Assembly (NCBI GenBank): GCA_022601195.1
Contig: JAHZIX010000006.1
Coordinates: 16,629 to 80,628 of the forward strand
From: Deltaproteobacteria bacterium
GTDB taxonomy: Bacteria; Acidobacteriota; Thermoanaerobaculia; Multivoradales; JAHZIX01
DNA: 64,000 nucleotides
Direction of reading: 5' to 3'
The position numbers and the translations under genes were made by a program. Each line of letters starts with the position of its first letter. Position 1 is the stretch's first letter. Under the pieces are notes generated by a model. That model saw only the letters and a program-made list of their open reading frames with translations. It was not told where the DNA came from and made no database searches. Positions 6,250-32,002 of this stretch are shown piece after piece.

Positions 6250-6264
6250 GGAGAGCTGAGAATC

Positions 6265-7973: not shown

Positions 7974-8022
7974 CAGAGTTTTTCCTGCCCATCGATGCTC
8001 GAGGCCGTTCTTCCAGCCAGCT

Positions 8023-11138: not shown

Positions 11139-11160
11139 ACAGGCTGCATGATCGGGTGGT

Positions 11161-13433: not shown

Positions 13434-13491
13434 GGCAGGCCTATTCCGTTAGTAGCAGATGCTCTCGCCGCGGCAATTTTCAGATCAGGCC

Positions 13492-15381
13492 TCAAAGGAC
13501 CCCGAAACGTCCCAAGCGGTGGATGGCTTCCACAAAACCCGCGGCGTTGTGCAAATGCCCGCTCCAGATCTCCGGCACCCAGCTAAAGTCTTTGTGGGAG
13601 AGGAGCTCCATCAAGTCATCCCATTCCACGACGCCCTCACCGATCTGCAACCCTTCGCCATCGATTCCGCTGGCATCGGCGACGTGCAGATGACGCACAT
13701 GGGGCAGACACAGGTCGACGAAATCCTGCAGCTTGCGGTGATAGAAGTTGCAATAGAGCTGGGCGTGGGAGATATCCAGAGTCATCCCCAGGCCTAGCTC
13801 CTGGCAGAACTCCACCAATTCCTCCGGTCGGATGAAGACGTTCTGGACCCATTGCCCTCCCAGGTACCAAGGCCGGGGAGGAAGATTTTCCGGCAGCAGA
13901 ATGGTGCCCTTCGCATCGAGTCGGCGAAAGGCCTCCACGGCTCGACCGAGGAGCAGGTCGTGGCGCTCGATGGGCTCGTCCATGCTCATGCCGCCGACAT
14001 GGATGACCACGCCCACGGGACCGGTGAAATGAGCTTGCATGGCAGCAGCCTTGTCGATGGTGCGCTGCATCAGAGTGATGGCTTGTTCACGGATCTCGTC
14101 ATCGAAGGAACAAAGGTCCAGGAGTCGGCTGTCGGAAAACTCGGGAGCATGAATGAACAGCTGCTGCGGGTGAGGCGAGGGGGGAGCTTCGAAAGGGTGA
14201 TCCACATCCGCTTCGCTGAAATGAAGCTCCACTAATTTCGGCTTCTTCTCCAGAATCTCCTGGAGATCGTGGAAGCGGGCCTTGAGTCCCCAGGTACGGA
14301 CCAGCTTCGAGGGTTCCAGGACGCGATCCGTGCCGGTCGACAAGTCCCCCTCGGTGAAATATTCGTCCTCTTCGATATTGCGATCCAAACGAGTGCCGAG
14401 GAGCTCTTGCATGCGCTGGGGGGAGAGCCCTTTGCCGGGTCCCTTGACTCGCACCATTGCTCGCTCGACGACCGTGCCCGTTGCCAAGTCTCGAGACGCG
14501 ACCAGGCTCTTGCGCAGCACCTGGCGATTGAGCATCTCCATGGTGGAAAGGTGTTTGACTTGGTCCCCTAGAGCAATTTCTCCATGGCGAATATCGCGCA
14601 CCAACTTCTGGATCCCTGCCGGCTCCAGACTCGCTGGGTGGTCCGGTCCAGGGAGGGTGCGGTCCAGGGTGATGTGTTTTTCGATGATCACGGAGCCCAA
14701 GGCCAAGGCCAGCATGGGGACGGCAATGCCCCGTTCGTGGCTGCTGTAACCCACCGGCACGTCCAACTCCTTGAGTCGCTCCAGGTAGCGCAAGTTGAGG
14801 CTCTCGAAGGGGGCCGGGTAGGTGCTGACGCAGTGGAGCAAGGCGAAGGAGGCGCCGAGATTCTTGAGGTGGCTAACGGTTCTCTCGATCTCCTCCGGAG
14901 TCGCCATGCCCGTCGAGAGAATCAGGGGCTTGCCCGTAGCGGTCAATTTTTCCAGCAAGGGCAAATTGACCAGATCCGCAGAGGCCACTTTGTAGATGCT
15001 CACTCCGAGCTCTTCGAGAAACTCCAGGCTCGGGGCGTCCCAGGGAGTGCACATGAAGCGGATTCCCTTTTCGTCGCAGCGCGCCTTGATCTGGTGGAAG
15101 CCGTCGTCGGTGAGCTCCTGCTGTTGGAGGATCGGTAGAAGGTATTGAAAAGCCCACTCGGCAGAGTTGGGATCGTTGAGCAGCTTGGCCGGGTACAGGC
15201 TCTTGACGTTCCGTTTCTGAAATTTGACCGCGTCGGCACCGGCTTCCGCAGCGACATCGACCAGCTTTAGGGCCATGTCCAGGCTACCGTTATGGTTCAC
15301 GCCGGCCTCGGCGATGATGAAGCAGGGCTCGCCCGTTCCGATACGGCGATCTTCCAGTTGCAAATAAGGTGTCTCAGGCAT
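13492..15381 (-). CDS. NeuB-family ulosonic-acid synthase (PEP-condensing, with SAF domain) fused to a C-terminal xylose-isomerase-like TIM-barrel (AP_endonuc_2) domain
   Basis: The N-terminal CFIIAEAGVNHNGSLDMALKLVDVAAEAGADAVKFQ is the classic NeuB/PseI/LegI motif. The SAF region lies around SLVASRDLATGTVVERAMVRVKG. Residues ~350-629 carry LHVADASGIDGEGLQIGEGVVEWDDLMELL, typical of sugar-phosphate isomerase/epimerase TIM barrels. Confidence 0.8.
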   Translation of the reverse strand: MPETPYLQLEDRRIGTGEPCFIIAEAGVNHNGSLDMALKLVDVAAEAGADAVKFQKRNVKSLYPAKLLNDPNSAEWAFQYLLPILQQQELTDDGFHQIKARCDEKGIRFMCTPWDAPSLEFLEELGVSIYKVASADLVNLPLLEKLTATGKPLILSTGMATPEEIERTVSHLKNLGASFALLHCVSTYPAPFESLNLRYLERLKELDVPVGYSSHERGIAVPMLALALGSVIIEKHITLDRTLPGPDHPASLEPAGIQKLVRDIRHGEIALGDQVKHLSTMEMLNRQVLRKSLVASRDLATGTVVERAMVRVKGPGKGLSPQRMQELLGTRLDRNIEEDEYFTEGDLSTGTDRVLEPSKLVRTWGLKARFHDLQEILEKKPKLVELHFSEADVDHPFEAPPSPHPQQLFIHAPEFSDSRLLDLCSFDDEIREQAITLMQRTIDKAAAMQAHFTGPVGVVIHVGGMSMDEPIERHDLLLGRAVEAFRRLDAKGTILLPENLPPRPWYLGGQWVQNVFIRPEELVEFCQELGLGMTLDISHAQLYCNFYHRKLQDFVDLCLPHVRHLHVADASGIDGEGLQIGEGVVEWDDLMELLSHKDFSWVPEIWSGHLHNAAGFVEAIHRLGRFGVL

Positions 15382-15616
15382 GACGGCTCTCGTTTCTCAC
15401 GGTGCTCCCTCTGGCCAGCGTGTTTTCTCTAGTCAGTGTGCTCGTTCTTCTGACAACGCTCATGGCGCTGAATACGTGCGCTGTTTTTGCGATGCGCAGG
15501 GTCTTATCTATGCGCAGATCTCTTCGGTGCAGAGGTTTTTACCCATGCAGACTACGCTGAACAACGCTCGCCGGTGCCGGCCGGAAGGGTCTTCACAAGA
15601 TCTTAGGGATGGAGAT

Positions 15617-16315
15617 TCAGGACTTGACCGCGCGGCGCAACTGAAAGAGCTGCTCCATGCGCGGAAGATCTTCGGGCTCGTCGATCTGGAACGAATCAAG
15701 GGGGTCCATCCGGTGAACGGCGATTCTACCACCTAGACGGTTGCCATGGCGACGCAGCACCCAGGGCTTGAAGAGATAGATCGAACCGTTTTCTAGTAGA
15801 TCTTCTCCCAGATCCTGGCGGCGTTGACGCCTCTCGAAGTCGTAGCTAACGGAGCTCAGGCCCTGGGCATTCAGGCGCCATACGAATCCGTGAACCGGGC
15901 AAGCGGAAAACAAGCTGTCTGCCCCTTCTCGGTGCAGGGTTTCGATGGCCCGGGCTATGTCTTCCGGTTGGCGCAGAGGGGATGTGGCTTGGAGGAAGAG
16001 GACTAGGTCTGGCACGTATCCCTCCTCCTGTTCCAGGTGATCCAATGCATGGACCAGAGCCGACTCGGAGCTGGCTTCGTCGCCACTGATGTCTACCGGG
16101 CGGTGGACGACTTCAGCACCGTACTCGCTGGCCACTCCGGCGATGACCTGGTCATCCGTGGAGACGACCACCCGGTCCACGGCGGAAGCTTGTCGAGCTT
16201 GCTCGATGCTATGGGCGACCAGAGGTTTTCCCGCTACCAGGTGGACGTTTTTTCCAGGTATTCCTTTGGAGCCCCCCCGGGCAGGGATCAGGGCGAGGAT
16301 GGAAGGTGCGCTCAA
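15617..16315 (-). CDS. CMP-ulosonic acid synthetase (acylneuraminate/KDO cytidylyltransferase family)
   Basis: ALIPARGGSKGIPGKN N-terminal motif, 232 aa. It is separated from the synthase gene by an unusual 235-bp gap. Confidence 0.85.
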   Translation of the reverse strand: MSAPSILALIPARGGSKGIPGKNVHLVAGKPLVAHSIEQARQASAVDRVVVSTDDQVIAGVASEYGAEVVHRPVDISGDEASSESALVHALDHLEQEEGYVPDLVLFLQATSPLRQPEDIARAIETLHREGADSLFSACPVHGFVWRLNAQGLSSVSYDFERRQRRQDLGEDLLENGSIYLFKPWVLRRHGNRLGGRIAVHRMDPLDSFQIDEPEDLPRMEQLFQLRRAVKS

Positions 16316-18105
16316 GGGGTCGCTCCTTTGTTCGGTTGATGGGATGGCTGCGGACTCTGGGGTGGCTTCGGTTCCTGGAGCGGCGAAGTTGCCGGCGTGG
16401 TGGAACCTCTTGGAAGCAATAGACCATCTGGAAGCGACAGGTCTTCTGGAAAGGACAGGTCATTTGGTAGCGAAAGGGCGAACAGCAGTAGGTGCTCGGA
16501 TCGAAGGATCTCGGTGGCAAAGCTCGGTGGGCTGGAGAAATCCTGCTGATGCTCCGAATCTACCGCCAGGTAACCGAGAGACCCGGGAAAGACTCTAGGT
16601 AGCTCCTCTCTCACTCTCTCTACCAGAGGCCAGTTGGTGACCCCTCGCACAACGTGCCGCTCCGCGTAATAGACGGGAATCATATTGGTTTGAGGAGACA
16701 ACACCACGGCGCCCTGAGGGATGGCCTGGCGGATTTCTTGGGCGTAGTCCAAGAGAGGGTGGGAGATCTCGCGGGGGCCGGAGGCGTTTACCCTTCCCTT
16801 GGCAACCAGGGGGAAAAGCAGGGTTGCTGGAAGAACGCCCAGGAGAGTCCAGCGGGCTGCCCTGCGTAGGGCAGGGGACGGGGAGACATCGCAGTGGGCT
16901 AGAGCGCTGGCTACTGCCACTCCGACGCTGCCGGCAAGAAACGGAGCGCCGATATACATCTCGTATTGGTGGTTATAGGCGTGGTTCTTCATCAAGAGGA
17001 ACCAAGCGACCCACATAGTGGCCAGTCCACCGAGAGCGTAACCTGCCTCGATGTTTGGTCGACGGCGGTGTAGCCAGCCAGCTATCACTGCCCATCCTGC
17101 CGCCGTAACCACGAGCTGTCCGTTGGCCCAGATTCGCTCCGCGAAGGTGAGAACAACCTGGGCTAGGGAAGGTTGTAGATAGCTGCCGTAGCTGTGGTGG
17201 TTGACCAGGGTATGCACCTGAAAAGCCTGCTCTGGGGAGTACTCGAGGCCGAGGCGAAAGGCGACGGTGTGCCAAAGGTCCTCCAACAGCCCCGGCGACT
17301 GCCATGCGTAGAGCCCCATGACCAGGAAGACGGTGACTCCGGCGGTGAGGCAGTAGCCAGCTGCCAAGACCAGGTCGAATCGCCGTCGCCGAAACAGCGC
17401 CAGGCCCAGCAGGCCCCCTGTGGCGAGGGCTGGTTCCCAGGAGGTTCCCACGGCGGCTGCCATGGAGGTGATTCCGAGCCAAGGCCAGGGGCTTTTCCAC
17501 TGGTTTTGTTTCGTCTGGTTTTGTTTCGTCTGGGTTCGTTTCGTCTGGGCCCGTTTCGTCGCTTCGACAAAGCCGAGCAAAGCGAGAAGGGTAAAGGCCA
17601 GGGCCAGATGGAGATGCATCACCATTTCTCCCTTGATGGCCACGATAGGCAAGCAAAGGAAGGTGAAGGCTCCTACCAGAGCAGCGCGTTGGCTCAGGCA
17701 GGCACGCAGCAGCCAACCGACAAGGGCAGCGTTTATGAGCAAAAGGAAGGTGGCGAAGCCACGGGCGGCCATGGGGGACTCCCCAAACACTGCAAAAACC
17801 CAGCTCAAGACAATGGGGAAAAGGGGGGGCCAATGAAGATAGGCATCCGGTTCCAGGCCCAATGGTGAGTGGTTCTGGATGGGTAGACCGCCCAGCCCGA
17901 ATACTCCGTGCTCCTGATATGCGTGGGCTATGGTCGCGAAGTGGGCCGACACCCAACCGTTGGTGACCAGGGGTTGAGAATAGCGAAGGCCGTGGCTGAT
18001 CAGGGTCAACAGGATCGCCAGAGCCAACCAGGCGAGCAGGATAGGTTCCCTGGTGGCGGCAGGGTTCCTGGCTTCCTCGGCCTCGGGCTGTCGGTGGGCT
18101 TCCAT
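16312..18105 (-). CDS. GT-C-fold polytopic membrane glycosyltransferase (ArnT/PMT-like, polyprenyl-P-sugar dependent)
   Basis: 597 aa, many TM helices, large hydrophilic C-terminal domain. An internal five-residue repeat TKRAQ/TKRTQ/TKQNQ/TKQNQ is encoded by a 15-bp tandem DNA repeat. The start overlaps the UbiA gene by 1 nt. Confidence 0.55.
   Translation of the reverse strand: MEAHRQPEAEEARNPAATREPILLAWLALAILLTLISHGLRYSQPLVTNGWVSAHFATIAHAYQEHGVFGLGGLPIQNHSPLGLEPDAYLHWPPLFPIVLSWVFAVFGESPMAARGFATFLLLINAALVGWLLRACLSQRAALVGAFTFLCLPIVAIKGEMVMHLHLALAFTLLALLGFVEATKRAQTKRTQTKQNQTKQNQWKSPWPWLGITSMAAAVGTSWEPALATGGLLGLALFRRRRFDLVLAAGYCLTAGVTVFLVMGLYAWQSPGLLEDLWHTVAFRLGLEYSPEQAFQVHTLVNHHSYGSYLQPSLAQVVLTFAERIWANGQLVVTAAGWAVIAGWLHRRRPNIEAGYALGGLATMWVAWFLLMKNHAYNHQYEMYIGAPFLAGSVGVAVASALAHCDVSPSPALRRAARWTLLGVLPATLLFPLVAKGRVNASGPREISHPLLDYAQEIRQAIPQGAVVLSPQTNMIPVYYAERHVVRGVTNWPLVERVREELPRVFPGSLGYLAVDSEHQQDFSSPPSFATEILRSEHLLLFALSLPNDLSFPEDLSLPDGLLLPRGSTTPATSPLQEPKPPQSPQPSHQPNKGATP
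17501..17560. repeat. 15-bp tandem repeat x4 (tggttttgtttcgtc; two perfect plus two diverged copies) inside GT-C coding sequence
   Basis: Read directly: tggttttgtttcgtc tggttttgtttcgtc tgggttcgtttcgtc tgggcccgtttcgtc. In frame this encodes TKxxQ pentapeptide repeats. Confidence 0.8.
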
Positions 18106-19100
18106 TACATGCCCGGAACGGTTGGTTCCAGGAGGCGATGCACCCAGGGGATATCGAAGTAGAGCAGCAGGAGGATCACTGCAGCGCAGCCGAGGATGGC
18201 GAACATCAGGTGGGGTTCTTTGTACAGTCGCTCCGGAGCTTGGGCGGCACTGTTGTTCTTGAAAGCTACTGAGAGGTATAAGGCCATCACCAAGGCAACA
18301 AAGGGAAAAGAGAGAATCAGCTCCAGGCGGTACCTCATGATGAAAGCGCCTAGGAAGAGCATGGCTGCCGAGCTATAGAACATCACTGAGATCAACAGCT
18401 TGTCCAGTGTGTAGACGCCGAAGGAGCGCCGGTAGCCGGTGGTCTGCGCCGTACTGCCCAACTGCCTCAGCTCGGCGTAGCGTTTGATGGCCATGAAGTA
18501 CGCCCCCACCATCCAATAGCTAAGCAATAGGGAGCCTGGGGGAGCTCCCAAGGGAGTGGCTATATACCAACCGGCGAGCATGCGCAGGGGGTTGTTGACC
18601 GCTTCGGACAGGGCGTCCAAGTAGGCGACTTCCTTGGTTCGAATGGGGCGGACGTTGTAGACCACCCCCATGAGCCAGAGGGCTCCGAGAGTCCAGGCCA
18701 ACCCCGGGGAGACAGAGGCTCCCAAAGCGATTCCGGCTGCGCCGAAGACGATCCATTGGAGGTACGCGAGAGGGATGTGTACCTGGCCACTTGGAACCGG
18801 CCGGTGGCGCTTAGTGGGGTGGAGGCGATCAAAAGGGGCGTCGAGGACCTCGTTCAAAGTGTAGTTGCTGGAGGCCACCAAACAGGTGGCCAGGAGCCCC
18901 ACGGCAATCGCTAGCCAGAGCTGGTTGCCGGCGGCTTGGGGAGCCAGGGTCAAGGCGACGACGATGCCCGGCAGCACGAAGACATTCTTTACCCAATGGT
19001 CGAGGCGCAGGATGGCTAGATGGCCCGCCAGAGAAGGACGGCTCGCTTCGGTGGGCCGGGAGGAGCTGCTGGGGGCAGGTGGTTGAGGGGGCTCGCTCAA
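18105..19100 (-). CDS. UbiA-superfamily prenyltransferase, decaprenyl-phosphate phosphoribosyltransferase (DPPR)-like
   Basis: NEVLDAPFDRLHPTKRHRPVPSGQV contains the NxxxDxxxD motif plus the R..RP.PSG segment of UbiA enzymes. A second acidic motif lies at YLDALSE. It has ~8 TM helices and 331 aa. Confidence 0.75.
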   Translation of the reverse strand: MSEPPQPPAPSSSSRPTEASRPSLAGHLAILRLDHWVKNVFVLPGIVVALTLAPQAAGNQLWLAIAVGLLATCLVASSNYTLNEVLDAPFDRLHPTKRHRPVPSGQVHIPLAYLQWIVFGAAGIALGASVSPGLAWTLGALWLMGVVYNVRPIRTKEVAYLDALSEAVNNPLRMLAGWYIATPLGAPPGSLLLSYWMVGAYFMAIKRYAELRQLGSTAQTTGYRRSFGVYTLDKLLISVMFYSSAAMLFLGAFIMRYRLELILSFPFVALVMALYLSVAFKNNSAAQAPERLYKEPHLMFAILGCAAVILLLLYFDIPWVHRLLEPTVPGM

Positions 19101-20008
19101 GGCTGCCTCGCGTAGAGTACGACCATCGAATCTCTAGGGTTTACAGGGATCACACGTTCATAAAGCCAAGCTAGTGGCGCGATGCGTTTGGCCATCCGGT
19201 TCACGAAGCCAACGGGGAGGTAGCGCTCCAGGCGTTCCGCCACGTATCCCACGGGGAAGAACCACCGAGCCCGGCGAAAGCCAATGGGGTGAAGGCCCGC
19301 TGCCTGCGCCGCACGGTCGAGGGATCGACGGTCGAAGTAGCCTACATGGGCGAGACGAAAGTGCCACCAACGATGCCGCAGTATCTTGGCTGCAAGGCTG
19401 CCCACATCCGGCGTTACGACCATCAATCGGCCGTTCGATTCCATGCCCTCGGCACAAGCGCGCAGCAAGGCCACCGGATCGGGGACATGCTCGATGACGT
19501 CGATCAGACAAACCGCGTCGAAGCGGTGTCCGCTCAACTTTGGGTGGGGATAGGTTCCTTGCAGAATTCCCACGCTGTGGAGTCGTTGGGCCGTTGCCAC
19601 GAGGGCTTGGCTTGGCTCGACCCCCTCGGTCTTCCAGCCTCGAAGATTGGCCTCGGCGATCAGGGCTCCAGCTCCAGCTCCGATGTCCAAGAGGGTCTTG
19701 GCTTCGGGAGCGGCCTTGCGCAGCACCTTCAGCAACCAGCTCATTTGCAAGCGCCGGCTTTCCTGACCTTCTTCATACCCGGAGTCTTCGAGTTCTTCAT
19801 AGAGACTCAGCAGCTTCGCCAATTCGCCGCCTTCAGCAAAGATAAAGCCGCAATCCGGACAACGGACAAGGGATAGGGTCAGGCCGTAGCGAGCATCGGT
19901 GATTTTGAGATCATCGGGTACCAGCTCCCGGTCGAGATTTCTCGGCTTCCAGGGCTGGCTCTGGAGCGAGCCGCAGATCCAGCAAGCGTTTTCTATGAGT
20001 CTTTCCAT
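19097..20008 (-). CDS. Class I SAM methyltransferase with N-terminal Zn-ribbon
   Basis: CWICGS...CPDCG forms a Cys4 ribbon. MTase motif I is LLDIGAGAGALIAEANLRG. Motif III/post is VCLIDVIEHVPDP...GRLMVVTPD. Confidence 0.75.
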   Translation of the reverse strand: MERLIENACWICGSLQSQPWKPRNLDRELVPDDLKITDARYGLTLSLVRCPDCGFIFAEGGELAKLLSLYEELEDSGYEEGQESRRLQMSWLLKVLRKAAPEAKTLLDIGAGAGALIAEANLRGWKTEGVEPSQALVATAQRLHSVGILQGTYPHPKLSGHRFDAVCLIDVIEHVPDPVALLRACAEGMESNGRLMVVTPDVGSLAAKILRHRWWHFRLAHVGYFDRRSLDRAAQAAGLHPIGFRRARWFFPVGYVAERLERYLPVGFVNRMAKRIAPLAWLYERVIPVNPRDSMVVLYARQP

Positions 20009-20056
20009 GGTACCCGCGGATCATGGCACATTTGCCTTCTGCTACACTCGCCCGCC

Positions 20057-21466
20057 ATGAAACTCAGTGTGTTGATTCCCGTGTACAACGAGCGCTATCT
20101 CGTGGCAGAGCTGGTGCGCCGAGTCTTGGTGGCACCGCTTCCAGAAGGGGTCGGACGGGAGATTATCATCGTCGATGATGGCTCCCGGGACGGTACTGTG
20201 GAAGTGGTCGCGAAGATGGAGAGCGAGCACCCTGACCAGATTCGTTTCATTCAGCACGAAAAGAACCAAGGCAAGGGTGCCGCGGTTCGGACTGCGATTC
20301 GCGAGGCCAGCGGCGATTTCGCCATCTTTCAGGACGCCGACTTGGAATACGATCCCCGCGACTACGAGCGACTCCTGGAGCCTCTTTTGTCCGGTCAGGC
20401 GGATGTGGTCTACGGCTCCCGCTTCCTTCCTTCTCAACGTCGCCGTGTTCTCTATTTTTGGCACAGCCTGGGCAACCGCTTCCTCACCCTTCTGTCCAAT
20501 ATGTTTACCAATCTCAATCTCACCGACATGGAAACCTGCTACAAGGTTTTTCGCACCGAGGTCCTAAAGACGATCCCCATTCGCAGTAACGATTTCGGCC
20601 TCGAGCCGGAGATCACCGCCAAGGTTTCCAAGCGGGGGCTGCGTCTCTACGAAGTTCCCATTAGCTATGACGGGCGAACCTATCTGGAAGGCAAGAAGAT
20701 CGGTTGGAGGGATGGCTTACGGGCCCTCTACGTGATCCTCAAGTATCACTTCATCGACGATCTCTACGATGAGAAAACCGGCCATGCGATCCTCTCGGAC
20801 CTGTCTCGGGCGCACCGGTTCAATCGTTGGATGGCAGACATCATCCGCCCCGAGTTGGGCCACTCAGTGCTCGAAGTGGGAGCTGGAATCGGCAATCTCA
20901 CCTCCCAGCTACTGCCTCGGGAACGGTACATCGCTAGCGATTTCGACGATCTTCACCTCGATGTCCTGCAAAATCTGGCCATGAATCGGGTCGGCCTCGA
21001 CGTCCATCGTCTCGATGCCTCAGAGGCCGAGGGCTATGCAGGCTTTCGGGGCGATATCGACTCTATAGTCTGCCTCAATGTTCTCGAGCACATTCCCCAA
21101 GCGGCGGCCTCGTTGAAGAATTTTTACGATTCCTTGGCCCCAGGGGGCCGAGTGATCATCTTGGTGCCTCAGGGGAAATGGCTCTTCTGTCCTTTGGACG
21201 AGGCTTTGGAGCACGTCAAGCGCTATTCGCCCCAGGAGCTGCGAGAGGAACTGGAGGCAGCGGGTTTCGAGGTGGAAAAGGTCCGTCATTTCAACCGCAT
21301 CGGAGTGATCGGCTGGTTCTTGAACGGCAAATTGCTGCGTCGGGTTCAGCTGGCCAAGATTCAGCTGAAGATTTACGACTCCTTGGTGTGGCTCTGGCGA
21401 GGCATCGATCGGTTCTTACCGTGGCATGGACTCTCGGTCATCGCCGTGGGCCGCAAGCCGGAATAG
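20057..21466 (+). CDS. GT2 polyprenyl-phosphate sugar synthase (ArnC/DPM1/GtrB-like) fused to C-terminal class I SAM methyltransferase domain
   Basis: The N-terminal MKLSVLIPVYNE...IIVDDGSRDGT...IFQDADLEYDP...VVYGSRF matches the DPM1/ArnC family. C-terminal residues ~260-469 carry SVLEVGAGIGNLTSQLL...SIVCLNVLEHIPQ...GGRVIILVPQ (MTase motifs I and III). Confidence 0.8.
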   Translation: MKLSVLIPVYNERYLVAELVRRVLVAPLPEGVGREIIIVDDGSRDGTVEVVAKMESEHPDQIRFIQHEKNQGKGAAVRTAIREASGDFAIFQDADLEYDPRDYERLLEPLLSGQADVVYGSRFLPSQRRRVLYFWHSLGNRFLTLLSNMFTNLNLTDMETCYKVFRTEVLKTIPIRSNDFGLEPEITAKVSKRGLRLYEVPISYDGRTYLEGKKIGWRDGLRALYVILKYHFIDDLYDEKTGHAILSDLSRAHRFNRWMADIIRPELGHSVLEVGAGIGNLTSQLLPRERYIASDFDDLHLDVLQNLAMNRVGLDVHRLDASEAEGYAGFRGDIDSIVCLNVLEHIPQAAASLKNFYDSLAPGGRVIILVPQGKWLFCPLDEALEHVKRYSPQELREELEAAGFEVEKVRHFNRIGVIGWFLNGKLLRRVQLAKIQLKIYDSLVWLWRGIDRFLPWHGLSVIAVGRKPE

Positions 21467-22846
21467 TCGCCGTCTCGAAGTTTCCAGGCCGGCGGCGGCG
21501 TAGAGACAGAGGATCGGCGTAATGGGAACGCGAAATCGGTGGTAGGACTCCGGGCCGGCAGAAATGAGTACCAGATAAGCGGCGACTCCCCAGGCACAAA
21601 GGTCGAAGACTTCGACCCGGCGGTGGCGAAGGGATGTCCACCACCAGCGGGCTCCACCCCAGTAGAGGACCGCCAAAAAGGCCAGCAGTACCAGAGCGAC
21701 CAGAAAGCTCATCGATCGTTCTAGAACCCACCGCCTCAGGTAGTCCCTCGGCTTCAAGCGAAACAGATCTCCCAGCGGTCCGGAGCTGGGAATGGGAATG
21801 CCGAGCAACCGCATCACGGTGTGTTCACCGGTTCCCCCGAGGGTTGCCGCCATGCCCACCAGCTGCATTTTCGCGACTTCTGCCGGATGCTGAGCCAAAA
21901 TGGCTAGACCTTCTTCCTTCCACCGTTCGGTGAGCTCTTCTTCAGTGAAGTCACGGGTTTCCGGATGAAGCTCCCGGTACCAACCCTTTCCCAGCTGATG
22001 GCGGGCTTCCTCGAGGCTGATGCCATCTCGCAAGGAGATGACTTTGGCGCCTCGGAAGAACAACAGATCCAAGCCGACGATTTGGCTGATATCGCCGCTA
22101 CCGGTGAGGCGATAGTTGCGCAGTTGCCAGCCTCCCAACAGTCCCACTACGGGAATAAGGAAGGCCAAGAGAGCCGCGCAGGTCTTTTGAGGCGAGAGAT
22201 GGCGCCGCCACGCTGCCACCAGGATCCAGCCGGCGACAGCGGGCGCCAAGTAGTAGCTGATCGGCCTCACCAAGGTCGCCACGGCCAGCAACAGGCCGAT
22301 GCCGCCGGCCCACAGAACCCCCCGATTTCCCTTGGCAAAACGGAGGGCGCAAAACAACATGGCAACCATGAGGAATGCGAAGAGGGTCTCGGTGAGTAGA
22401 AGGAGCGAGTGGGAAAAAGAGGCTGCATCGAGGGTGAGAAGGCCCGCGGCGGCGATTCCCACCGGTGTGGAGAAACGCTCTTGGGTGAGGCGAAAAAGAA
22501 GCAGTATCGTTGCCAGGCTAAGGAGGATCTGCCAGGCGATACCCGCTGCTGGTCTTTCTCCTGCCAAAGCATAGGCGGGAGCCAGAAAAATCGGGTAGCC
22601 GGGTGTGCGACGAGTCTCCGGGACGTTGGGGCGGTCGGCGGACACGGAGAACCTTCCCGCTTGCAACAGAGAGCGGGTGGTCTCGTGATAGGCGACCGAG
22701 TCGGTGTAGACGAAACGGGCCGGGTCCTGGGTCACCACGACCCCCCACACAAGAACCTTGAGAACTGCCGAAATGGCCAGCAGCCCCAACAGGCATTTGG
22801 GCAAGCCTCCCCTGGGCAGTTTCACTGGGTTACCCCTCCTCGGCAT
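21416..22846 (-). CDS. GT-C-fold glycosyltransferase, ArnT (GT83)/PMT-like
   Basis: The first periplasmic loop FVYTDSVAYHETTRSLLQ aligns with the ArnT TDETRYAEISREML motif (T-D-x-x-x-Y-x-E-x-x-R-x-x-L), and there are more than 10 TM helices. The probable start is at Met34 (MPRRGNPVKL); the ORF extends to 22945. Confidence 0.7.
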   Translation of the reverse strand: MPRRGNPVKLPRGGLPKCLLGLLAISAVLKVLVWGVVVTQDPARFVYTDSVAYHETTRSLLQAGRFSVSADRPNVPETRRTPGYPIFLAPAYALAGERPAAGIAWQILLSLATILLLFRLTQERFSTPVGIAAAGLLTLDAASFSHSLLLLTETLFAFLMVAMLFCALRFAKGNRGVLWAGGIGLLLAVATLVRPISYYLAPAVAGWILVAAWRRHLSPQKTCAALLAFLIPVVGLLGGWQLRNYRLTGSGDISQIVGLDLLFFRGAKVISLRDGISLEEARHQLGKGWYRELHPETRDFTEEELTERWKEEGLAILAQHPAEVAKMQLVGMAATLGGTGEHTVMRLLGIPIPSSGPLGDLFRLKPRDYLRRWVLERSMSFLVALVLLAFLAVLYWGGARWWWTSLRHRRVEVFDLCAWGVAAYLVLISAGPESYHRFRVPITPILCLYAAAGLETSRRRLFRLAAHGDDRESMPR

Positions 22847-23970
22847 TTCCCCTCTTCGGCGGCGAGGCGCAAGACTTTTTCGACTCTTCCGCCGGCTACC
22901 TGCCAATTGAGATCCGACTCGTAGCGTCTGCGGCTGTCGATACACAACCGGTGATAGCGCTGCGGTTGGGCCATCAAGCGAGCGATGGCTTCGGAAAAAG
23001 CTTCCGCCATGGCCCCGGCGGGGAGAACCACGCCGGAGGTACCGTTCTTCACGGAAGTAGCGATGCCTCCGACATCTCGGGTCACGACCGGGAGGCCAAA
23101 GGCTGCAGCCTCGGCGGTGACGATAGGAGAGGGGTCGAAGCGAGCTGGGTGAAGCAACAGATGCGACCTGCGGTAGAGCTCTAGGTAGGTCTCGAGCTCT
23201 TGAGATCGGCTCTTTCGAAACGGGCCCACAAAGCGAATATGCTCCTCATCGGATCCCGAAAGCCCACAGATCGTCAACCGAGTGGGGTTGCCGGAGCGGT
23301 TCAGCTGTCGAGTCGTCTCCATGGCGATATCGATACCTTTGCGGTGGAAGTTCCGGCCCACGGTGAGGAGCTCCAAAGGCTCTGCCAGGGACCGCGGAGG
23401 GGGAGCCCCATCGGGAACCTTGTCTTGGGGCAACGCCGAGGGATTGGGAAAGGTATGAATACGGCGCGCATCGAAGCCGTAGTCGCGAGCCAAGCCTTCG
23501 GCGGACCAACCACTATGGGTGATCAAGTGGGAGCAGCGGGCAAAGGCGCGATGTTCCTGCCAAATATTCAGTTTCATGGCCAAATCTCCGAACTCCTCAT
23601 ATCCACTTTGGTAGCCACGGAAACTGGTGTCCAAGCGGAAGACGCAAGGGGTAGAGCCGCGGTAAAAAACCAACGATGGCTGAAACAGAGTGAACACGAC
23701 ATCTGCTTTGGCTGCCTCTTCGGCCCGGTTCAGCCCCGCTGATGCCCGCCGGGTCAGGCTGTGGGGGAACTTGGCGTATCGCTTCTTGATCCCTCGCTGG
23801 TAAAGGCGTTTCAAGACTCTCTCCCAGGCGCTGGGTGGGTGTCTAAAGGGCCCGACGAGACTCATGTCATGGCCTCGTTCCGCCAGAGAACGATAGAAGT
23901 TGAAGTCGGCGCCGCTCGCAGCGTCCGGGTCTCTGGGGTCGTGGCGATAGGCGGAATAGAGGATTCTCAT
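22822..23970 (-). CDS. Glycosyltransferase family 4
   Basis: 382 aa. HLLLHPARFDPSPIVTAEAAAFGLPVVTRDVGGIATSV is a GT4 C-domain motif. Confidence 0.8.
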   Translation of the reverse strand: MRILYSAYRHDPRDPDAASGADFNFYRSLAERGHDMSLVGPFRHPPSAWERVLKRLYQRGIKKRYAKFPHSLTRRASAGLNRAEEAAKADVVFTLFQPSLVFYRGSTPCVFRLDTSFRGYQSGYEEFGDLAMKLNIWQEHRAFARCSHLITHSGWSAEGLARDYGFDARRIHTFPNPSALPQDKVPDGAPPPRSLAEPLELLTVGRNFHRKGIDIAMETTRQLNRSGNPTRLTICGLSGSDEEHIRFVGPFRKSRSQELETYLELYRRSHLLLHPARFDPSPIVTAEAAAFGLPVVTRDVGGIATSVKNGTSGVVLPAGAMAEAFSEAIARLMAQPQRYHRLCIDSRRRYESDLNWQVAGGRVEKVLRLAAEEGKCRGGVTQ

Positions 23971-23973
23971 GAA

Positions 23974-24792
23974 TCACTCGTCGCCGGAGCCCCGGGGGGA
24001 CGAGGGTGCCCGGGCGGCGACCAACAAGTCGATCGCCTTGTTCGGTGTGGTTTCCCGTTGGGTTCTCTTCCAGAGTTTCCAAACGAACGGCAGGCGGTTC
24101 ATGTATTTGCGCAGCTTGAGGCGGGCTCCCTCACAGCGTCTCCCGTGGCCGCGAAATTCCAACACCTCGAAGCCGCTGCTCTCGAGGAGAGCCGACAGAC
24201 GTTCCTGGGAATAGTGGCGAAAGTGATGGGTTGGCATTTTCAGGTTCCAGCTCGGGGTGGTCAGAACCAGAAGCCCACCGGGAGCGAGAACTCGCCGAAT
24301 CTCCTCCAGGAGAGCTGTTTCCACCTCATCGGGCACATGCTCGATGACTTCGATGGCGGTGATTAGGTCAAAACTGCCAGCTTCGAAGGGTAGACGGTTG
24401 CCATCGTAGGCACGAAAGTCGATTTCAGGGGTGATCAATCTGGCAAAAGCGATGGCCCGTTCGCTGATGTCAACGCCGAAGGCACGGGTATCCCCGGCCA
24501 GATGGTCGAAGACATCGGAGGTCCAACGTCCGTCACCACAGCCGAAGTCCAGGTAGCGACCGATCGACGGCGGCCCGTTGCGGGAGATGAGCTCGAAGAT
24601 GATGCGTTGTTTTTCCTCACGGAAAAAGCGCGGCAGCCTCTGCTCCGGGAACCAGTGGTAGGGCAAGCGGTACTGTTTTTCTTGCTCGTCGATAGGGGAA
24701 GTTGGGGGTTGAGATGTCACAGCGTCCCCTCCCTGGGCAGCCGGGATTCGATCTCCAGAAGCAGTCGCTCGGTTGCGATCTTCCATGTCCAA
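23974..24792 (-). CDS. Class I SAM methyltransferase (Methyltransf_11-like)
   Basis: YLDFGCGDGRWTSDVF is motif I. ...FDLITAIEVIEHVPD...PGGLLVLTTP follows. The start is uncertain because the first ~25 codons overlap the upstream GT4 C-terminus. Confidence 0.75.
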   Translation of the reverse strand: MDMEDRNRATASGDRIPAAQGGDAVTSQPPTSPIDEQEKQYRLPYHWFPEQRLPRFFREEKQRIIFELISRNGPPSIGRYLDFGCGDGRWTSDVFDHLAGDTRAFGVDISERAIAFARLITPEIDFRAYDGNRLPFEAGSFDLITAIEVIEHVPDEVETALLEEIRRVLAPGGLLVLTTPSWNLKMPTHHFRHYSQERLSALLESSGFEVLEFRGHGRRCEGARLKLRKYMNRLPFVWKLWKRTQRETTPNKAIDLLVAARAPSSPRGSGDE

Positions 24793-25994
24793 TTCTCCTC
24801 GTAGCGCCGCCGTGAAGCTCGAGCCAGGTGACGATACAGGTCGGGGGTCTTGACGAGACCAGTGACGGCGTCGGCAAAATCTATCGCAGAGCTTCCCAAA
24901 GGGAGAAGCAGGCCGGTTTCTTCGTGGAGGACGATCTCATTGACGCCATCCGTGTCATGGGTGATCACCGGGAGGCCGTGAGCCGCAGCCTCCGCGAAGG
25001 CCAGGCCGAAACCTTCTGCGGCGGTAGGAAGGACGAGGAGCTGACATTTTGCAAAGAGCTCCCCGAGGCGAGCTAGATCTTTGGGTCGATTCTTGTCCAA
25101 GAGTCCGTAGTAGACCACCGACTCGTCCTGCGACCGGTCTGGAGACTGGCCTTGAGACGGGCCCTGAAGCGAGGCTTGAGATACGCCTTGGGGTTCGCCG
25201 CCCGCTGCATGCAGCACTGCTTCGTACCCTTGGCGCCGAAGCACCCGACAGCACTCGACGGCCAAGGGGCCTCCTTTGCCGAGCCAATCTTTGCCCAGGA
25301 AGAGCAGGTCGAGACGAGTTTTGCCGGTCGATCCTTTGGGTAGATCCGTGACGGACCGAGTTCTTGAGAGTTCAGCTCCCGGGTCGTCGACGTTGGCACC
25401 GAAGGGAACCACTGCGAGGCGCTGGGCAAGATCCGGGTCATAGGCTAGGGCCTCTCTCATCTGCCATCGTCCGGGAAAAATACTGATCGCTGCCTTTGCC
25501 AAACCAGCGCCGATGGTTCTCAAGCTGAAAGCCGTGCTCAAGGGAGAGAGTCCGGCCAGACGCGGGTTGGTACGTTTTGCTGGTTCCTTGGAAATCATGC
25601 TGTCGGTGTAGAGAACGACAGGGCGCTCTGTTGGACAGTAGGCTGCCAGGCCATAGTCGGAAGTGAGCAAGAAGTCGTAGTCCAACCCGGCCAGGCTCGG
25701 CCCGAGGCTACGTCCCAGTCGGCGGGCAAATAGTGGATCTTGAAAGGTTCGGTAGCCCGAGCCTTGGCGCCGGCTAAGTCCCTTGAAGATGCGAGTGGCA
25801 ACGGGGAGCTCGACCTCTCCGGGCTGCAGAAAATGTACCGTATGACCCTGTCGTTCGAGCTCTTGGCCGAGGAAATACCAGGTGCCGGAGCCGCGGCGAA
25901 CGTCGCGAGCATCGAAGAGGTTCGCGTAGGCGATGCGCAGAGTCAAGGTTCGTAGAGCAGGCGGTAGGTGAGCGTGTTGATTCTCTTGAGCCAT
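24717..25994 (-). CDS. Glycosyltransferase family 4
   Basis: LLVLPTAAEGFGLAFAEAAAHGLPVITHDTDGVNEIV is a GT4 C-domain motif. A Gln/Ser/Pro low-complexity insertion is present. The probable start is Met64 (MAQENQ); the ORF extends to 26183. Confidence 0.8.
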   Translation of the reverse strand: MAQENQHAHLPPALRTLTLRIAYANLFDARDVRRGSGTWYFLGQELERQGHTVHFLQPGEVELPVATRIFKGLSRRQGSGYRTFQDPLFARRLGRSLGPSLAGLDYDFLLTSDYGLAAYCPTERPVVLYTDSMISKEPAKRTNPRLAGLSPLSTAFSLRTIGAGLAKAAISIFPGRWQMREALAYDPDLAQRLAVVPFGANVDDPGAELSRTRSVTDLPKGSTGKTRLDLLFLGKDWLGKGGPLAVECCRVLRRQGYEAVLHAAGGEPQGVSQASLQGPSQGQSPDRSQDESVVYYGLLDKNRPKDLARLGELFAKCQLLVLPTAAEGFGLAFAEAAAHGLPVITHDTDGVNEIVLHEETGLLLPLGSSAIDFADAVTGLVKTPDLYRHLARASRRRYEENWTWKIATERLLLEIESRLPREGTL

Positions 25995-26971
25995 CGCCGC
26001 AGATATCGGTTGCTGACCCGGGGCCGGGAGTGGCTCTGCTGGTCTGTTGCCTCGTTTTTGGCAGGCAATCCTGAGGCGTCGAAGAGGCGAGGGTCCACAT
26101 CGATTCCCTCCGGCATGGCTGCAAAGCTTGGGGCAGCGTTGCCGAGGTGATGAATGCGGTAACCGGTGGTGGAGAGACGCCAAAACCCAAGAGCATCCAC
26201 TCGCTTCTCCAGCACCGGGCTATAGACCGGGTCATAGTACTCACCGGGCTCCGTCACTTGAAGGGGCAGGACCTGTTCCAACACCTTGCGTCGGGTGGTG
26301 AATTGAAAATCTTGAGCCGAGACAAAGGCACTGACCCCTCGCCGGGTGATCTGTACATCCTGACGGTTCAGCAGTCGACTCGCGTACTCCTCGGAACTGG
26401 ATCCAAGGCTGATGCGGTGGGCTTCGATATGAGCCTCGGGGATAAGGTCCGGACCCTCCTGCAAGGTGAGGTCTTCGCTTCGGCGTACCGCCTCTCGGGT
26501 GCCGGAACAATGTCGGTCTGCGGTATCGGCCGTGGGCAGGGCTGTGACCTGGCCAGCTTCCGGGAAGGCATCGAGAACCGCCAGGGTCTCATCGAGCCAG
26601 CCGGGTAGGAAGAGGACGTCGCTATCGGCGAAGGAGATGATCTCTCCTGGAGCCACCTGCAGCAGAAAATTGAGCGCTCCCAATTTGCGCAGATTGTGTT
26701 GCGAGAGGATCAGGCATTGAATGACCCCTTGTCGTCGCAGTTCCAGAAGGTAGTCCTGAATTTCGGTACAACTGCCATTGTCGAAGACATAGAGGTCAAA
26801 GGGGTGATCGGTATTTTCTTTCAGGCTGCGGAAGAACAGTCGAAGCACGGAGAAGCTCTCAGCCCAGAAGCCCTCTAGCACCGGCACATGGACGATGGTG
26901 GTGATGGTGATTCTCTGGGCCTTGGGTTGCTCGTGGAGCCACTTCATAGGGTTCTGGCCAACTCGTGACAT
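25943..26971 (-). CDS. Glycosyltransferase family 2 (GT-A)
   Basis: FDLYVFDNGS and ISFADSDVLF (DxD) are present. 342 aa. Confidence 0.6.
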   Translation of the reverse strand: MSRVGQNPMKWLHEQPKAQRITITTIVHVPVLEGFWAESFSVLRLFFRSLKENTDHPFDLYVFDNGSCTEIQDYLLELRRQGVIQCLILSQHNLRKLGALNFLLQVAPGEIISFADSDVLFLPGWLDETLAVLDAFPEAGQVTALPTADTADRHCSGTREAVRRSEDLTLQEGPDLIPEAHIEAHRISLGSSSEEYASRLLNRQDVQITRRGVSAFVSAQDFQFTTRRKVLEQVLPLQVTEPGEYYDPVYSPVLEKRVDALGFWRLSTTGYRIHHLGNAAPSFAAMPEGIDVDPRLFDASGLPAKNEATDQQSHSRPRVSNRYLRRWLKRINTLTYRLLYEP

Positions 26972-28261
26972 TCAATCACCTCGTCCGTGAGCTTGGTGCC
27001 ACTGATGATGCACCAAAAAGCTGCCATGGCGTTGGCCGATGGGGGCCTGTCCACTGCCGAAGGCATTGCCTTCCACCAGATTGAATTGGAAGGCCTCTTT
27101 GACATTGTCGGAGAACTCTCCATTCACGGAGCAACCTAAAGAGACGGTGTAGACGCCAGCCGCTAGGGGAATCGAAGGCATTTGGCAGTGGATTTTTCCT
27201 TCGGGCGGCAACGTTTCGAATCGTCCGACATCAGTGAAGTGAGTCGATAGAGTAAAGAGTAGATTGCCGATGTGGTCAGCGACGTGTATTTGGGCCAAGA
27301 CTTTGATCAGAGGTTTGCCGTCGGTGGAGCGGTAGCCGATCTCGAAGACACCCGAATCGCCGGAGCGTAGGGAACCGCTTTGGGTACCGTCCGGGTCGGT
27401 CAGTCGAATGCTTTGGAAGCGCATCGGGCCCGCCCCACGGCGATCGGTCCGATCTCCTAGAGGTATTGCTAGCTGAGTGGAGACCTTGGCCATGTATTGG
27501 GTGATGACTTCGTCGGTAGGACCGTAGGCCTCCAAACGGCCCCTTTCCAGCATTAAGGTGGTCGGGCAAAGGTGGGAAATAGCACCTAGATTGTGACTGA
27601 CCAAGAGCACGGTGCGACCTTGTCCAGCCACCTCTCCCATTTTACCCAGGCATTTTTTTTGAAAGGCGGCATCTCCCACTGCCAGCACTTCATCTACCAG
27701 TAGAATCTCCGGTTCCAAATGAGCAGCTACGGCAAATGCTAGCCGTAGGTACATGCCGCTCGAGTAGTGCTTGACCGGAGTGTCGATGAACTTTTCGAGC
27801 TCCGCGAAGTCAACGATCTCCTCGAACTTCTTCAGAATCTCGCCCCGGCCCATGCCGAGGATCGCCCCATTCAGAAAGATATTCTCTCTACCGGTGAGCT
27901 CCGGGTGAAAGCCGGTGCCGACCTCGAGCAGGGAGCCGACTCGGCCTCGGATTCGCGCTAGCCCGGCGGAAGGCTCGGTGATACGTGAGAGAATTTTGAG
28001 CAGTGTGCTCTTGCCTGCTCCATTGCGGCCGATAATACCCACCACCGCCCCTTCCGGAATGGCGAAAGAGATTTCCTGGAGGGCCCAGAAACTTTCGTGG
28101 AGGTCCGCTGCTCCGGTCGCATGACCCTTGAGTAAGTTTCCTACCCGCCGAAACGGGCTCGCTGCTAGCTCGACGAGCGTTTCTCGCAAAGTGCGGTACC
28201 GCTCCTGCTTGCCAATGAAGTAGCGCTTGCCGAGATCTTCCGCGAGGATGGCGTCATTCAT
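26972..28261 (-). CDS. wzt: ABC transporter ATP-binding protein Wzt with C-terminal carbohydrate-binding (Wzt_C-like) domain
   Basis: GRNGAGKSTLLKIL is Walker A, YSSGMYLRLAFAVA is the signature motif and LLVDEVLAVGD is Walker B. A ~165-aa C-terminal extension (FQSIRLTDPDGTQSGSLRSGDSGVFEIGYRS...) follows. The start MNDAIL lies 2 nt after the wzm stop; the ORF track extends spuriously to 28585. Confidence 0.9.
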   Translation of the reverse strand: MNDAILAEDLGKRYFIGKQERYRTLRETLVELAASPFRRVGNLLKGHATGAADLHESFWALQEISFAIPEGAVVGIIGRNGAGKSTLLKILSRITEPSAGLARIRGRVGSLLEVGTGFHPELTGRENIFLNGAILGMGRGEILKKFEEIVDFAELEKFIDTPVKHYSSGMYLRLAFAVAAHLEPEILLVDEVLAVGDAAFQKKCLGKMGEVAGQGRTVLLVSHNLGAISHLCPTTLMLERGRLEAYGPTDEVITQYMAKVSTQLAIPLGDRTDRRGAGPMRFQSIRLTDPDGTQSGSLRSGDSGVFEIGYRSTDGKPLIKVLAQIHVADHIGNLLFTLSTHFTDVGRFETLPPEGKIHCQMPSIPLAAGVYTVSLGCSVNGEFSDNVKEAFQFNLVEGNAFGSGQAPIGQRHGSFLVHHQWHQAHGRGD

Positions 28262-28263
28262 GA

Positions 28264-29160: not shown

Positions 29161-29216
29161 AGAAGGCGTCCGCCATGTAGCGGACGCCTCATTCGTACAA
29201 GCTCTCTATCGAGGGC

Positions 29217-30092: not shown

Positions 30093-30183
30093 GGTCTCCC
30101 CCCCTCTTTACTCCAAGATCGTCGGATCATATAAGTAGAAACAATATCCTATCAAACTAGGTGTTCGCAGCAAAAAATCCGGA

Positions 30184-31740: not shown

Positions 31741-32002
31741 TGTGGTGGAAGAACTCCTAGGAAACCTTCCTATCTGGTAGCGCCCACGGCAGGACGACGG
31801 TCGCTTCTTGCAAGGACCGGTCTCTGAATGGGATTCGGGCAACTGAATCATTTATCGACTTTTTCCACTGGGTGGCCTGATATTTCCAAAATCGAAGCTT
31901 CGACCCGTAGAATTTATAGCAAGAGCCGTACCAAGGACTAATTTCTCTGCTCTTCTCAATTTTTTTAATTGGCGGTGTGCCATCTTACTGGCCTCCGCCT
32001 AG

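Follow-up and report, generated by a model that had tools for sequence, protein, structure and literature searches.

Sugars transferred in the periplasm by glycosyltransferases of the GT-C class (GT-Cs) are thought to be drawn from a few lipid-linked donors, which are unmodified or epimerised; lipid-linked donors are also remodelled by the ArnD deformylase and the NaxD deacetylase. To our knowledge, O-methyl sugars are common in the surface glycans of environmental organisms and pathogens and the known methylations occur on cytoplasmic intermediates; we know of no report of methylation of a polyprenyl-phosphate-linked monosaccharide donor. Enzymes described as remodelling polyprenyl-phosphate monosaccharides include DprE1/E2 and the ORF13 epimerase (PMC11127046). 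Haloarchaea methylate carrier-bound glycans, through AglP in Haloferax volcanii and transiently in Halobacterium salinarum (PMC3871713, PMC4335974); the 'obligatory transient methylation' of Halobacterium dolichyl oligosaccharides was reported in 1985 and has never been explained mechanistically. WsaE of Geobacillus stearothermophilus combines a methyltransferase (MT) with two rhamnosyltransferase domains of glycosyltransferase family 2 (GT2), so MT and GT2 fusions as such are already known (PMC2943079). Considered here is a gene at 20057..21466 (plus strand) of a 64,000-nucleotide stretch (the window) of contig JAHZIX010000006.1 from an assembly labelled Deltaproteobacteria bacterium, whose product joins a GT2 domain, predicted to be of the polyprenyl-phosphate type, to a class I S-adenosylmethionine (SAM)-dependent MT. 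The components of the pathway proposed for this protein are familiar, and the fused MT is its distinguishing feature; the fusion protein probably supplies a methylated sugar that decorates surface polysaccharides.

A genuine and widespread fusion

The gene is a single ATG-started open reading frame (ORF) of 469 codons plus a stop codon, with no stop or frame change inside it, as the sequence-only reading of this DNA had proposed when it described one in-frame GT2-MT fusion. All four motifs on which that reading relied are found in the translation: IIVDDGSRDGT at residues 37-47, FQDADLEYDP at residues 91-100, LEVGAGIGNLTSQLL at residues 272-286, and VIILVPQG at residues 366-373. Pfam places Glycos_transf_2 at residues 4-172 (E 2.3e-34, 119 bits, cutoff 23.3) and Methyltransf_23 at residues 265-408 (E 2.6e-15, 56.9 bits, cutoff 27); Methyltransf_12 also matches the MT domain (50.1 bits, cutoff 30). 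An AlphaFold2 model built on 44 orthologues, the same number of sequences that make up the conservation table used below, has a mean pLDDT (predicted local distance difference test) of 87.7 and a pTM (predicted template modelling score) of 0.75, and consists of two folded domains and a disordered linker. Pfam, the homologues and the model together define the gene as a polyprenyl-phosphate-type GT2 plus class I SAM MT in three parts, all on the plus strand: a GT-A catalytic domain predicted to be of the polyprenyl-phosphate glycosyltransferase type (residues 1-232, 20057..20752; sequence, fold and conservation), a linker (residues 233-250, 20753..20806; consensus and model), and the class I SAM MT (residues 251-469, 20807..21463; Pfam, Foldseek and conservation). 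Both termini, MKLSVLIPVYNE at the N-terminus and GLSVIAVGRKPE at the C-terminus, agree with the family consensus, and the gene limits are therefore right; the 3' end overlaps by 51 nucleotides the 3' end of the convergent gene at 21416..22945. A promoter and terminator scan around the fusion gene was uninformative.

The sequence-only reading did not recognise the architecture as described and asked whether it might be clade-specific. Neither suggestion holds: the fusion is abundant across phyla and has already been named by NCBI, several members carrying the automatic name 'bifunctional glycosyltransferase/class I SAM-dependent methyltransferase', and a database search shows loci spanning about ten phyla. 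In a search of 5.8 billion proteins, all of the 8000 candidates scored were significant; the best 120 of these homologues are 56-81% identical over 98-100% of the query and all contain both Pfam domains, and one public database entry (P0001) is identical to the query. When each GTDB species was represented by one genome, a scan gave at least 600 matching stretches, of which the best 80 come from genomes annotated as Acidobacteriota (Bryobacterales, Thermoanaerobaculia, and Terriglobia), Planctomycetota, Verrucomicrobiota, Myxococcota, Chloroflexota, Latescibacteria, Elusimicrobia, Bacteroidota, Desulfobaccales, Nitrospiraceae, and Actinomycetota. The architecture is thus not new to databases; what appears unreported is a functional description.

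Architecture was compared among 83 non-redundant related loci, in which genes were called by six-frame ORF clustering and frame-bias-weighted calling suited to high-GC DNA. Sixty loci carry the uninterrupted fusion, 16 carry the GT2 only, five are split or frameshifted, and two end at a contig edge. In three Bacteroidota loci (L055, L058, and L066) GT2 and MT are adjacent ORFs in the same frame with stop codons between them; in L055 (9989..11470) a GT2 of 239 residues and an MT of 247 residues are separated by 18 nucleotides. This split form may have arisen by fission or be the state from which the fusion evolved. It also shows that the unfused state exists naturally, which is the point in favour of an assembly or sequencing error having joined two separate genes in the window. 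Such an error has next to no probability, since the ORF is intact, 60 independent loci carry the fusion unbroken, 120 homologues are full-length, the linker is conserved, and the identical protein is present in public data; the fusion is confirmed as genuine, and is neither an assembly nor a frameshift artefact.

Other arrangements of the two domains also occur. In one locus (L090) they are separate genes, the MT first and the GT2 27 bp later; in another (L091) a DPM1-like GT2 without transmembrane (TM) segments is followed by a PMT/PMT_2 GT-C and then by the MT, with overlapping stop and start codons. A stand-alone MT orthologue elsewhere is followed by a gene for a 564-residue protein with eight TM segments. 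With the MT domain as query, 330 clusters were found at E <=1e-30, comprising C-terminal fusions of about 450-520 residues and stand-alone proteins of about 225-260 residues. One orthologue of 571 residues (P0043; L004/L005, 8001..9716) has a low-complexity insertion of about 60-70 residues inside the GT2, located after the helix that matches query residues 47-57 and just before the conserved N-x-G-K-G motif; the remainder is colinear.

The glycosyltransferase and methyltransferase domains

The nearest solved sequences to the GT2 half are PfDPMS from Pyrococcus (E 1.3e-20 over residues 1-231), ArnC (E 1.8e-17), and GtrB (E 3.3e-10), and Foldseek ranks 1-13 are all ArnC, DPMS or GtrB (E 3e-16 to 1e-13). 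Sequence and fold therefore agree with the ArnC/DPM1-like N-terminal domain named in the sequence-only reading. The top NCBIfam families are AglJ, PpgS, ArnC, and dolichyl-phosphate (Dol-P) hexose transferase, with scores below the equivalog cutoffs: 108.7 bits against 325 for AglJ, 60.8 against 370 for PpgS, and 58.8 against 529 for ArnC. By these comparisons the GT2 half is assigned to the clade that contains DPMS, ArnC, GtrB, PpgS, and AglJ and is an orthologue of no named enzyme; scores this far below the cutoffs mean that the donor sugar cannot be assigned from orthology.

The residues of PfDPMS that bind the metal, the donor and the phosphate of Dol-P, and those of its A-loop, were assigned by Gandini et al. 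(PMC5526996), and were mapped onto the fusion protein through pairwise alignment and the conservation table. E12 corresponds to E12, D39 to D41, 89-DADLQH-94 to 93-DADLEY-98, the Dol-P phosphate ligand R117 to R122, the gate residue F177 to F180, and A-loop residues R202, E206, and K208 to R207, E211, and K213, all of which are invariant; the A-loop arginine and lysine are thus retained along with the two glutamates. The metal-binding DxD motif, 93-DAD-95, is invariant in 44 of 44 sequences, and D40 (beside D41) and D157 are further residues listed for this half. Two positions hold a different residue that is itself invariant, H136 in place of R131 and N140 in place of S135, and K178 has no equivalent, G181 being found at its position.

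Two amphipathic helices in the model, at residues 134-151 and 217-232 (hydrophobic moments 0.44 and 0.54), align with interface helices 1 and 2 of PfDPMS, and no TM segment is predicted by hydropathy in the fusion protein. PfDPMS without residues 230-352, its TM domain, has wild-type-level activity and remains 80% membrane-bound (PMC5526996). The NCBIfam profiles of PpgS (226 positions) and the haloarchaeal Dol-P hexose transferase (213 positions) are also short. Because the truncated PfDPMS is active and these profiles are short, the missing TM domain is no argument against activity, and the GT2 half very likely uses a polyprenyl phosphate as acceptor.

The C-terminal half has the alternating strand-helix, seven-stranded Rossmann-like fold of a SAM-binding domain, modelled with pLDDT of about 80-97 over residues 251-469. 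Its Foldseek partners are SAM methyltransferases (BioC, the sugar O-methyltransferase RebM, MitM, TleD, and phosphoethanolamine methyltransferases; E about 1e-13 to 1e-11), and, with the Pfam scores and conserved motifs, they uphold the complete class I MT domain seen in the sequence-only reading. Both grounds on which that reading would have fallen, an interrupting stop or frameshift and a missing SAM-binding fold, are thus absent. In motif I, 272-LEVGAGIGN-280, E273 is conserved in 43 of 44 sequences, G275 in 44, G277 in 42, and G279 in 44; the acidic residue that closes strand 2, at position 295, is aspartate in 33 sequences and glutamate in 11. D320, D335, N341, and an HVKRY motif (H386 and R389) are invariant or nearly so. 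A helical insertion between strands 6 and 7 carries the conserved aromatic residues W420, W447, and W456, and the last strand spans residues 460-466. The 44 sequences have a mean identity to the query of 57% in the MT domain and 70% in the GT2 domain, which indicates that both domains are under purifying selection. Sequence and model describe what is predicted to be an intact class I SAM methyltransferase, able to bind SAM and transfer methyl groups.

The two halves are joined by a linker whose start, I-D-D-L-Y, is strongly conserved and directly follows interface helix 2; D234, D235, and Y237 are invariant or nearly so. Residues 238-250 are modelled as disordered (pLDDT <50) and form the sole disordered stretch of the protein. 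In this geometry the N-terminal lid of the MT would be tethered beside the exit site for the lipid product as it is known from DPMS.

Chemically, the MT's structural neighbours are too diverse to reveal its substrate. The 16 GT2-only orthologues (about 235-400 residues, 54-65% identical to residues 1-232) lie in loci where no MT is encoded within 10 kb, so the GT2 does not need one to work. Both observations would fit an MT that acts on an unrelated substrate (another polymer sugar, a lipid, or a protein), or an MT domain that replaces the TM domain as a structural or oligomerisation module, the fusion serving simply to co-localise or co-regulate two activities. This is improbable, as the SAM-binding motifs are invariant or nearly so, stand-alone MT orthologues lie in operons with GT2 and GT-C genes, and fusions or fissions that arose independently point to a shared pathway.

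Genomic context and the proposed route

The convergent neighbour of the fusion gene, at 21416..22945 on the minus strand, encodes a GT-C of 509 residues with at least seven TM segments and a PMT_2 match (E 6.8e-12, 46.3 bits, cutoff 26.1; Pfam and hydropathy). We propose that it acts in the periplasm as the transferase for the lipid-linked sugar that the fusion protein would make. The fusion gene is in fact placed between two pairs of lipid-donor and GT-C genes, with this PMT_2 GT-C on one side and an MT-UbiA-GT-C set on the other.

Linkage to such proteins recurs in related loci. The locus of an 81%-identical homologue (L088) has the GT-C adjacency arranged as in the window, and in that of a 70% homologue (L089) the fusion gene overlaps by four nucleotides the gene for a 573-residue polytopic protein. 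Polytopic proteins, defined as having at least 380 residues and at least six predicted TM segments, were chosen by hydropathy and then scanned with Pfam; in related loci, 31 of them lie within about 0.1-0.9 kb of the gene, 28 of these at 500 bp or less, and 21 of the 60 fused loci have one. The Pfam tally covers 34 proteins (these 31, the two GT-Cs of the window, and one further protein) and contains PMT_2 (16), PMT (3), Glyco_transf_22 (3), YfhO (2), DUF92 (2), GT87 (1), and PTPS_related (1); only a few of the adjacent membrane proteins tallied are transporters. A tblastn search with the GT-C proteins of the window as queries found no neighbours in related loci, because GT-Cs diverge too fast. 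By estimate, and not from a computed control, the adjacency is far above chance, since GT-C genes are a small fraction of any genome. A GT-C is a likely partner of the fusion enzyme. The DUF92 matches are in two immediately adjacent membrane proteins (E 2.6e-46); DUF92 presumably includes isoprenoid-phosphate kinases such as VTE6 and, if so, would provide a further link to polyprenyl phosphate.

In the proposed route, the GT2 domain would bind a nucleotide sugar, probably a UDP-sugar, and a divalent metal through D93, D95, and E97, dock on the cytoplasmic leaflet by its two amphipathic helices, and move the sugar onto the phosphate of an undecaprenyl-type phosphate held by R122, H136, and N140. 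The tethered MT would methylate the sugar on the cytoplasmic face, with the polyprenyl-phosphate sugar as its most probable substrate and the nucleotide sugar a less probable one; the methyl group would be placed on a hydroxyl or, if the sugar is a uronic acid, on the carboxyl. The methylated lipid-linked monosaccharide would be flipped by some flippase, and the GT-C encoded at 21416..22945 would use it in the periplasm to decorate the polysaccharide of the surrounding Wzm/Wzt locus. A polyprenyl-phosphate-sugar synthase without TM segments, with a methylated product that is fed to a GT-C, is given slightly better than an even chance as a whole; within it we infer which lipid accepts the sugar, which sugar is donated, what is methylated and when, and what finally receives the sugar.

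SAM chemistry is cytoplasmic and GT-C transfer is periplasmic, so a methyl group on a sugar delivered by a GT-C would have to be installed before flipping. The tethering of the MT at the membrane interface favours the polyprenyl-phosphate sugar as the methyl acceptor. Methylation of a lipid-linked sugar, as predicted in the sequence-only reading, fits the GT-C context and the split and three-gene operons; these do not decide between the polyprenyl-phosphate-sugar stage and the nucleotide-sugar stage, and methylation specifically on the carrier is given somewhat less than an even chance.

Other recurrent neighbours in the 83 loci are TviC/GalE-like epimerases (15), a second small PpgS-like GT2 (8), Wzm/Wzt (7-8), Wzc-like proteins (6), UDP-N-acetylglucosamine 2-epimerases (5), and STT3/AglB-like proteins (5). 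In L055 the split GT2-MT pair comes after genes for a TviC/GalE-like epimerase and a UDP-sugar dehydrogenase, a hint that the donor in that locus is a uronic acid. Epimerase neighbours and this dehydrogenase give only a hint of the donor in general, which could be a UDP-hexose, a UDP-N-acetylhexosamine, or a UDP-uronic acid 4-epimer.

A module consisting of epimerase, GT2 and MT (fused or separate), polytopic membrane protein, Wzm, and Wzt recurs in Acidobacteriota and in a flavobacterium. The epimerase is adjacent in L039, L048, and L055 and about 4 kb upstream in L034; the membrane protein is a PMT_2 protein in L055 and has no Pfam match in L039. The module is also present in the Chthoniobacter loci L040 and L042, with no epimerase detected. 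In the window, Pfam identifies Wzt, an ABC ATPase with a Wzt_C carbohydrate-binding domain, at 26972..28585, and Wzm, an ABC-2 permease, at 28264..29160, both on the minus strand. The Wzt ORF as listed has 537 residues, a TTG start, and an N-terminal extension of about 100-160 residues that overlaps Wzm; homologues align from about residue 94-163, and the true start is probably downstream of the TTG.

Linkage to Wzm and Wzt raises the alternative that the fusion protein is a chain terminator of the WsaE/WbdD kind, in which the GT2 adds an end residue to a cytoplasmic polymer linked to undecaprenyl diphosphate (Und-PP), the MT caps it, and the carbohydrate-binding module (CBM) of Wzt reads the cap for export. 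In 7-8 other loci from three phyla, Wzm and Wzt are found 1-5 kb downstream of the fusion, the Wzt of the window has its Wzt_C domain, and WsaE, an experimentally studied fusion of MT and GT2, adds a 2-O-methyl cap within a pathway that depends on an ABC transporter (PMC2943079). Against this, the GT2 is of the polyprenyl-phosphate type throughout (arginine ligand, A-loop, and interface helices) and not of the polymer-elongating type, and no WbdD-like coiled-coil ruler segment is evident in the modelled secondary structure. Identity of 56-81% across phyla and frequent orphan genes without an ABC transporter are unlike serotype-specific terminators, and wherever a fused or split gene is linked to Wzt, it has a polytopic membrane protein next to it as well. 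The CBMs of neighbouring Wzt proteins are only 25-30% identical between loci, against 52-70% for their nucleotide-binding domains, which indicates no common capped or methylated ligand. Chain termination by the fusion protein is accordingly considered unlikely, and Wzm and Wzt probably export a polymer that is decorated later. A 615-residue protein encoded at 9291..11138 (minus strand) has a class I MT domain at residues 449-545 and no Pfam match in its first 440 residues; this protein may be what actually terminates chains for the ABC transporter gated by Wzt_C.

Five loci annotated as Thermoanaerobaculia or Acidobacteriota (L036, L044, L047, L057, and L063) have the fusion together with an STT3/AglB-like oligosaccharyltransferase and a second, small PpgS-like GT2, which suggests a bacterial protein-glycosylation context for some members. 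These loci bear on a second alternative, in which the GT2 would act as an AglJ-like primer: it would place the first sugar on a polyprenyl monophosphate, other glycosyltransferases would extend the chain, the MT would modify the oligosaccharide as AglP does, and an oligosaccharyltransferase or ligase would transfer the glycan. AglJ is the best NCBIfam match, haloarchaea methylate their Dol-P-linked glycans while these are still on the lipid (PMC3871713, PMC4335974), and the window contains three Wzy_C/O-antigen-ligase-like proteins. Weighing on the other side are the AglJ score, far under its cutoff, the presence of STT3 in just five of the 83 loci, where GT-Cs that use monosaccharide donors (PMT_2, GT22, YfhO, and GT87) dominate, and the fact that Und-PP is the usual carrier on which bacteria build polymers for export by Wzm/Wzt. 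A priming role is rather unlikely, and departs from the favoured scheme only after the first transfer.

Several observations weigh against the scheme of a lipid-linked donor that is methylated and passed to a GT-C. On three long planctomycete-type contigs the fusion gene is an orphan, with no glycan genes nearby, so that GT-C linkage is frequent and not universal. None of the equivalog cutoffs is reached, two of the three phosphate ligands of PfDPMS are substituted, K178 is unmatched, and no characterised member of the polyprenyl-phosphate GT2-MT fusion family was found in full-text literature. The polysaccharide locus of the window holds at least five MT domains besides that of the fusion, and methylation of the polysaccharide therefore does not need the fusion's MT, which could act on the nucleotide sugar or on another polymer residue. 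No small flippase of the GtrA, SMR, or MATE type was found in window 1-45 kb among ORFs of at least 70 residues with at least three TM segments, where only the GT-Cs, UbiA, Wzm, and the Wzy_C-like proteins qualified; a flippase could be encoded elsewhere. One further idea, a long shot, is that the methyl group serves not, or not solely, as decoration but as a translocation tag, and that in the recurrent module of GT2/MT, GT-C, Wzm, and Wzt the Wzt_C-gated ABC transporter flips the methylated polyprenyl-phosphate sugar or a short methyl-capped lipid-linked glycan. If true, this would explain why the loci lack GtrA, SMR, or MATE flippases, and bacteria would have their own version of the transient methylation that Halobacterium dolichyl oligosaccharides undergo.

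Around the fusion gene extends one large polysaccharide locus, about 37 kb long (approximately 475-37,200 of the window), in which every other gene is on the minus strand. Export and regulation genes in this locus encode Wza-like, Wzc-like, CpsB, and TPR proteins in addition to Wzm and Wzt (with its Wzt_C domain); the transferases are several GT4 proteins, a GT2, and the two GT-Cs. Other genes encode a NeuB fusion, a cytidylyltransferase, a homologue of UbiA-type prenyl-phosphate phosphoribosyltransferases, a deacetylase, a GNAT protein, and Wzy_C-like proteins. Within 475..42170 components of different export routes are mixed, Wza, Wzc, CpsB, and three Wzy_C/O-antigen-ligase-like proteins being found alongside Wzm and Wzt, and at least six methyltransferase domains are present; L039 (Acidobacteriota) shows the same mixture, and L055 (Flavobacteriales) shows part of it.

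The second set of lipid-donor genes is a three-gene operon on the minus strand (16312..20008) with overlapping stop and start codons. It encodes a zinc-ribbon class I methyltransferase (19097..20008), a UbiA-family protein with best matches to decaprenyl-phosphate phosphoribosyltransferases (18105..19100), and a weakly PMT_2-like GT-C (16312..18105). By analogy with the pentofuranose systems (PMC11127046), the operon resembles a second system for making a lipid-linked donor; no HAD phosphatase domain or MATE flippase was seen in it. The GT-C has a short tandem peptide repeat, KRAQTKRTQTKQNQTKQNQWK, in a loop (window 17500..17600), presumably reflecting a repeat at the DNA level. At 13492..16315 (minus strand) a 629-residue protein unites NeuB and SAF domains with a xylose-isomerase-like TIM barrel (AP_endonuc_2) at its C-terminus, and a CMP-sugar-type cytidylyltransferase comes next; such a NeuB fusion is unusual and suggests a nonulosonic or related acid in the same glycan.

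Comparison with known systems

If the proposed scheme is true, a protein so far annotated by its domains only would gain a function, and a widespread family would both make and methylate the donor in one polypeptide, which would be a new route to diversify periplasmic glycosylation. The fusion protein would also be a TM-less model enzyme for the handover of lipid-linked sugars between active sites at the membrane surface.

The polyprenyl-phosphate GT2 enzymes (PfDPMS/DPM1, ArnC, GtrB, PpgS, AglJ/AglD, and CsbB/GacI) share with the fusion protein the GT-A fold, the DAD motif, the phosphate-binding arginine, the interface helices, and a mobile A-loop, which reads R...E-G-K-K in the fusion and R...G-E-S-K in PfDPMS. 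These enzymes work with GT-C partners, as is proposed for the fusion, and the TM-less form is represented by enzymes of PpgS length and by the active PfDPMS truncation. The fusion differs in having a C-terminal MT instead of TM helices, DADLEY instead of DADLQ(H/D/N), and H136 and N140 for R131 and S135.

In three-component systems such as GtrA/GtrB/GtrV, ArnC/ArnEF/ArnT, CsbB/GtcA/YfhO, and the UbiA-type PPPRS/MATE/GT136 system (PMC11127046), a cytoplasmic lipid-sugar synthase is linked to a GT-C in a polysaccharide locus, as is proposed for the window. Here the auxiliary activity would be methylation and is fused to the synthase. No flippase gene was found nearby.

WsaE shares with this protein the fusion of MT and GT2 and the coupling of methylation to glycan assembly in a Wzm/Wzt (Wzt_C) pathway. 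Its MT is N-terminal and its GT2 domains elongate an Und-PP-linked rhamnan, whereas the MT is C-terminal in the 469-residue fusion. WbdD of E. coli O8/O9a is also a methyltransferase coupled to a Wzm/Wzt (Wzt_C) pathway, but contains a kinase domain along with a coiled-coil ruler and lacks a GT domain.

Compared by described activity, AglP and the Halobacterium system have in common with the proposed route the SAM-dependent methylation of a sugar bound to a polyprenyl-type carrier on the cytoplasmic side, and they are encoded with a GT2 of the AglJ type. They differ in that the archaeal enzymes are separate proteins and that the methylated glycan is a tetra- or pentasaccharide destined for AglB-dependent N-glycosylation.

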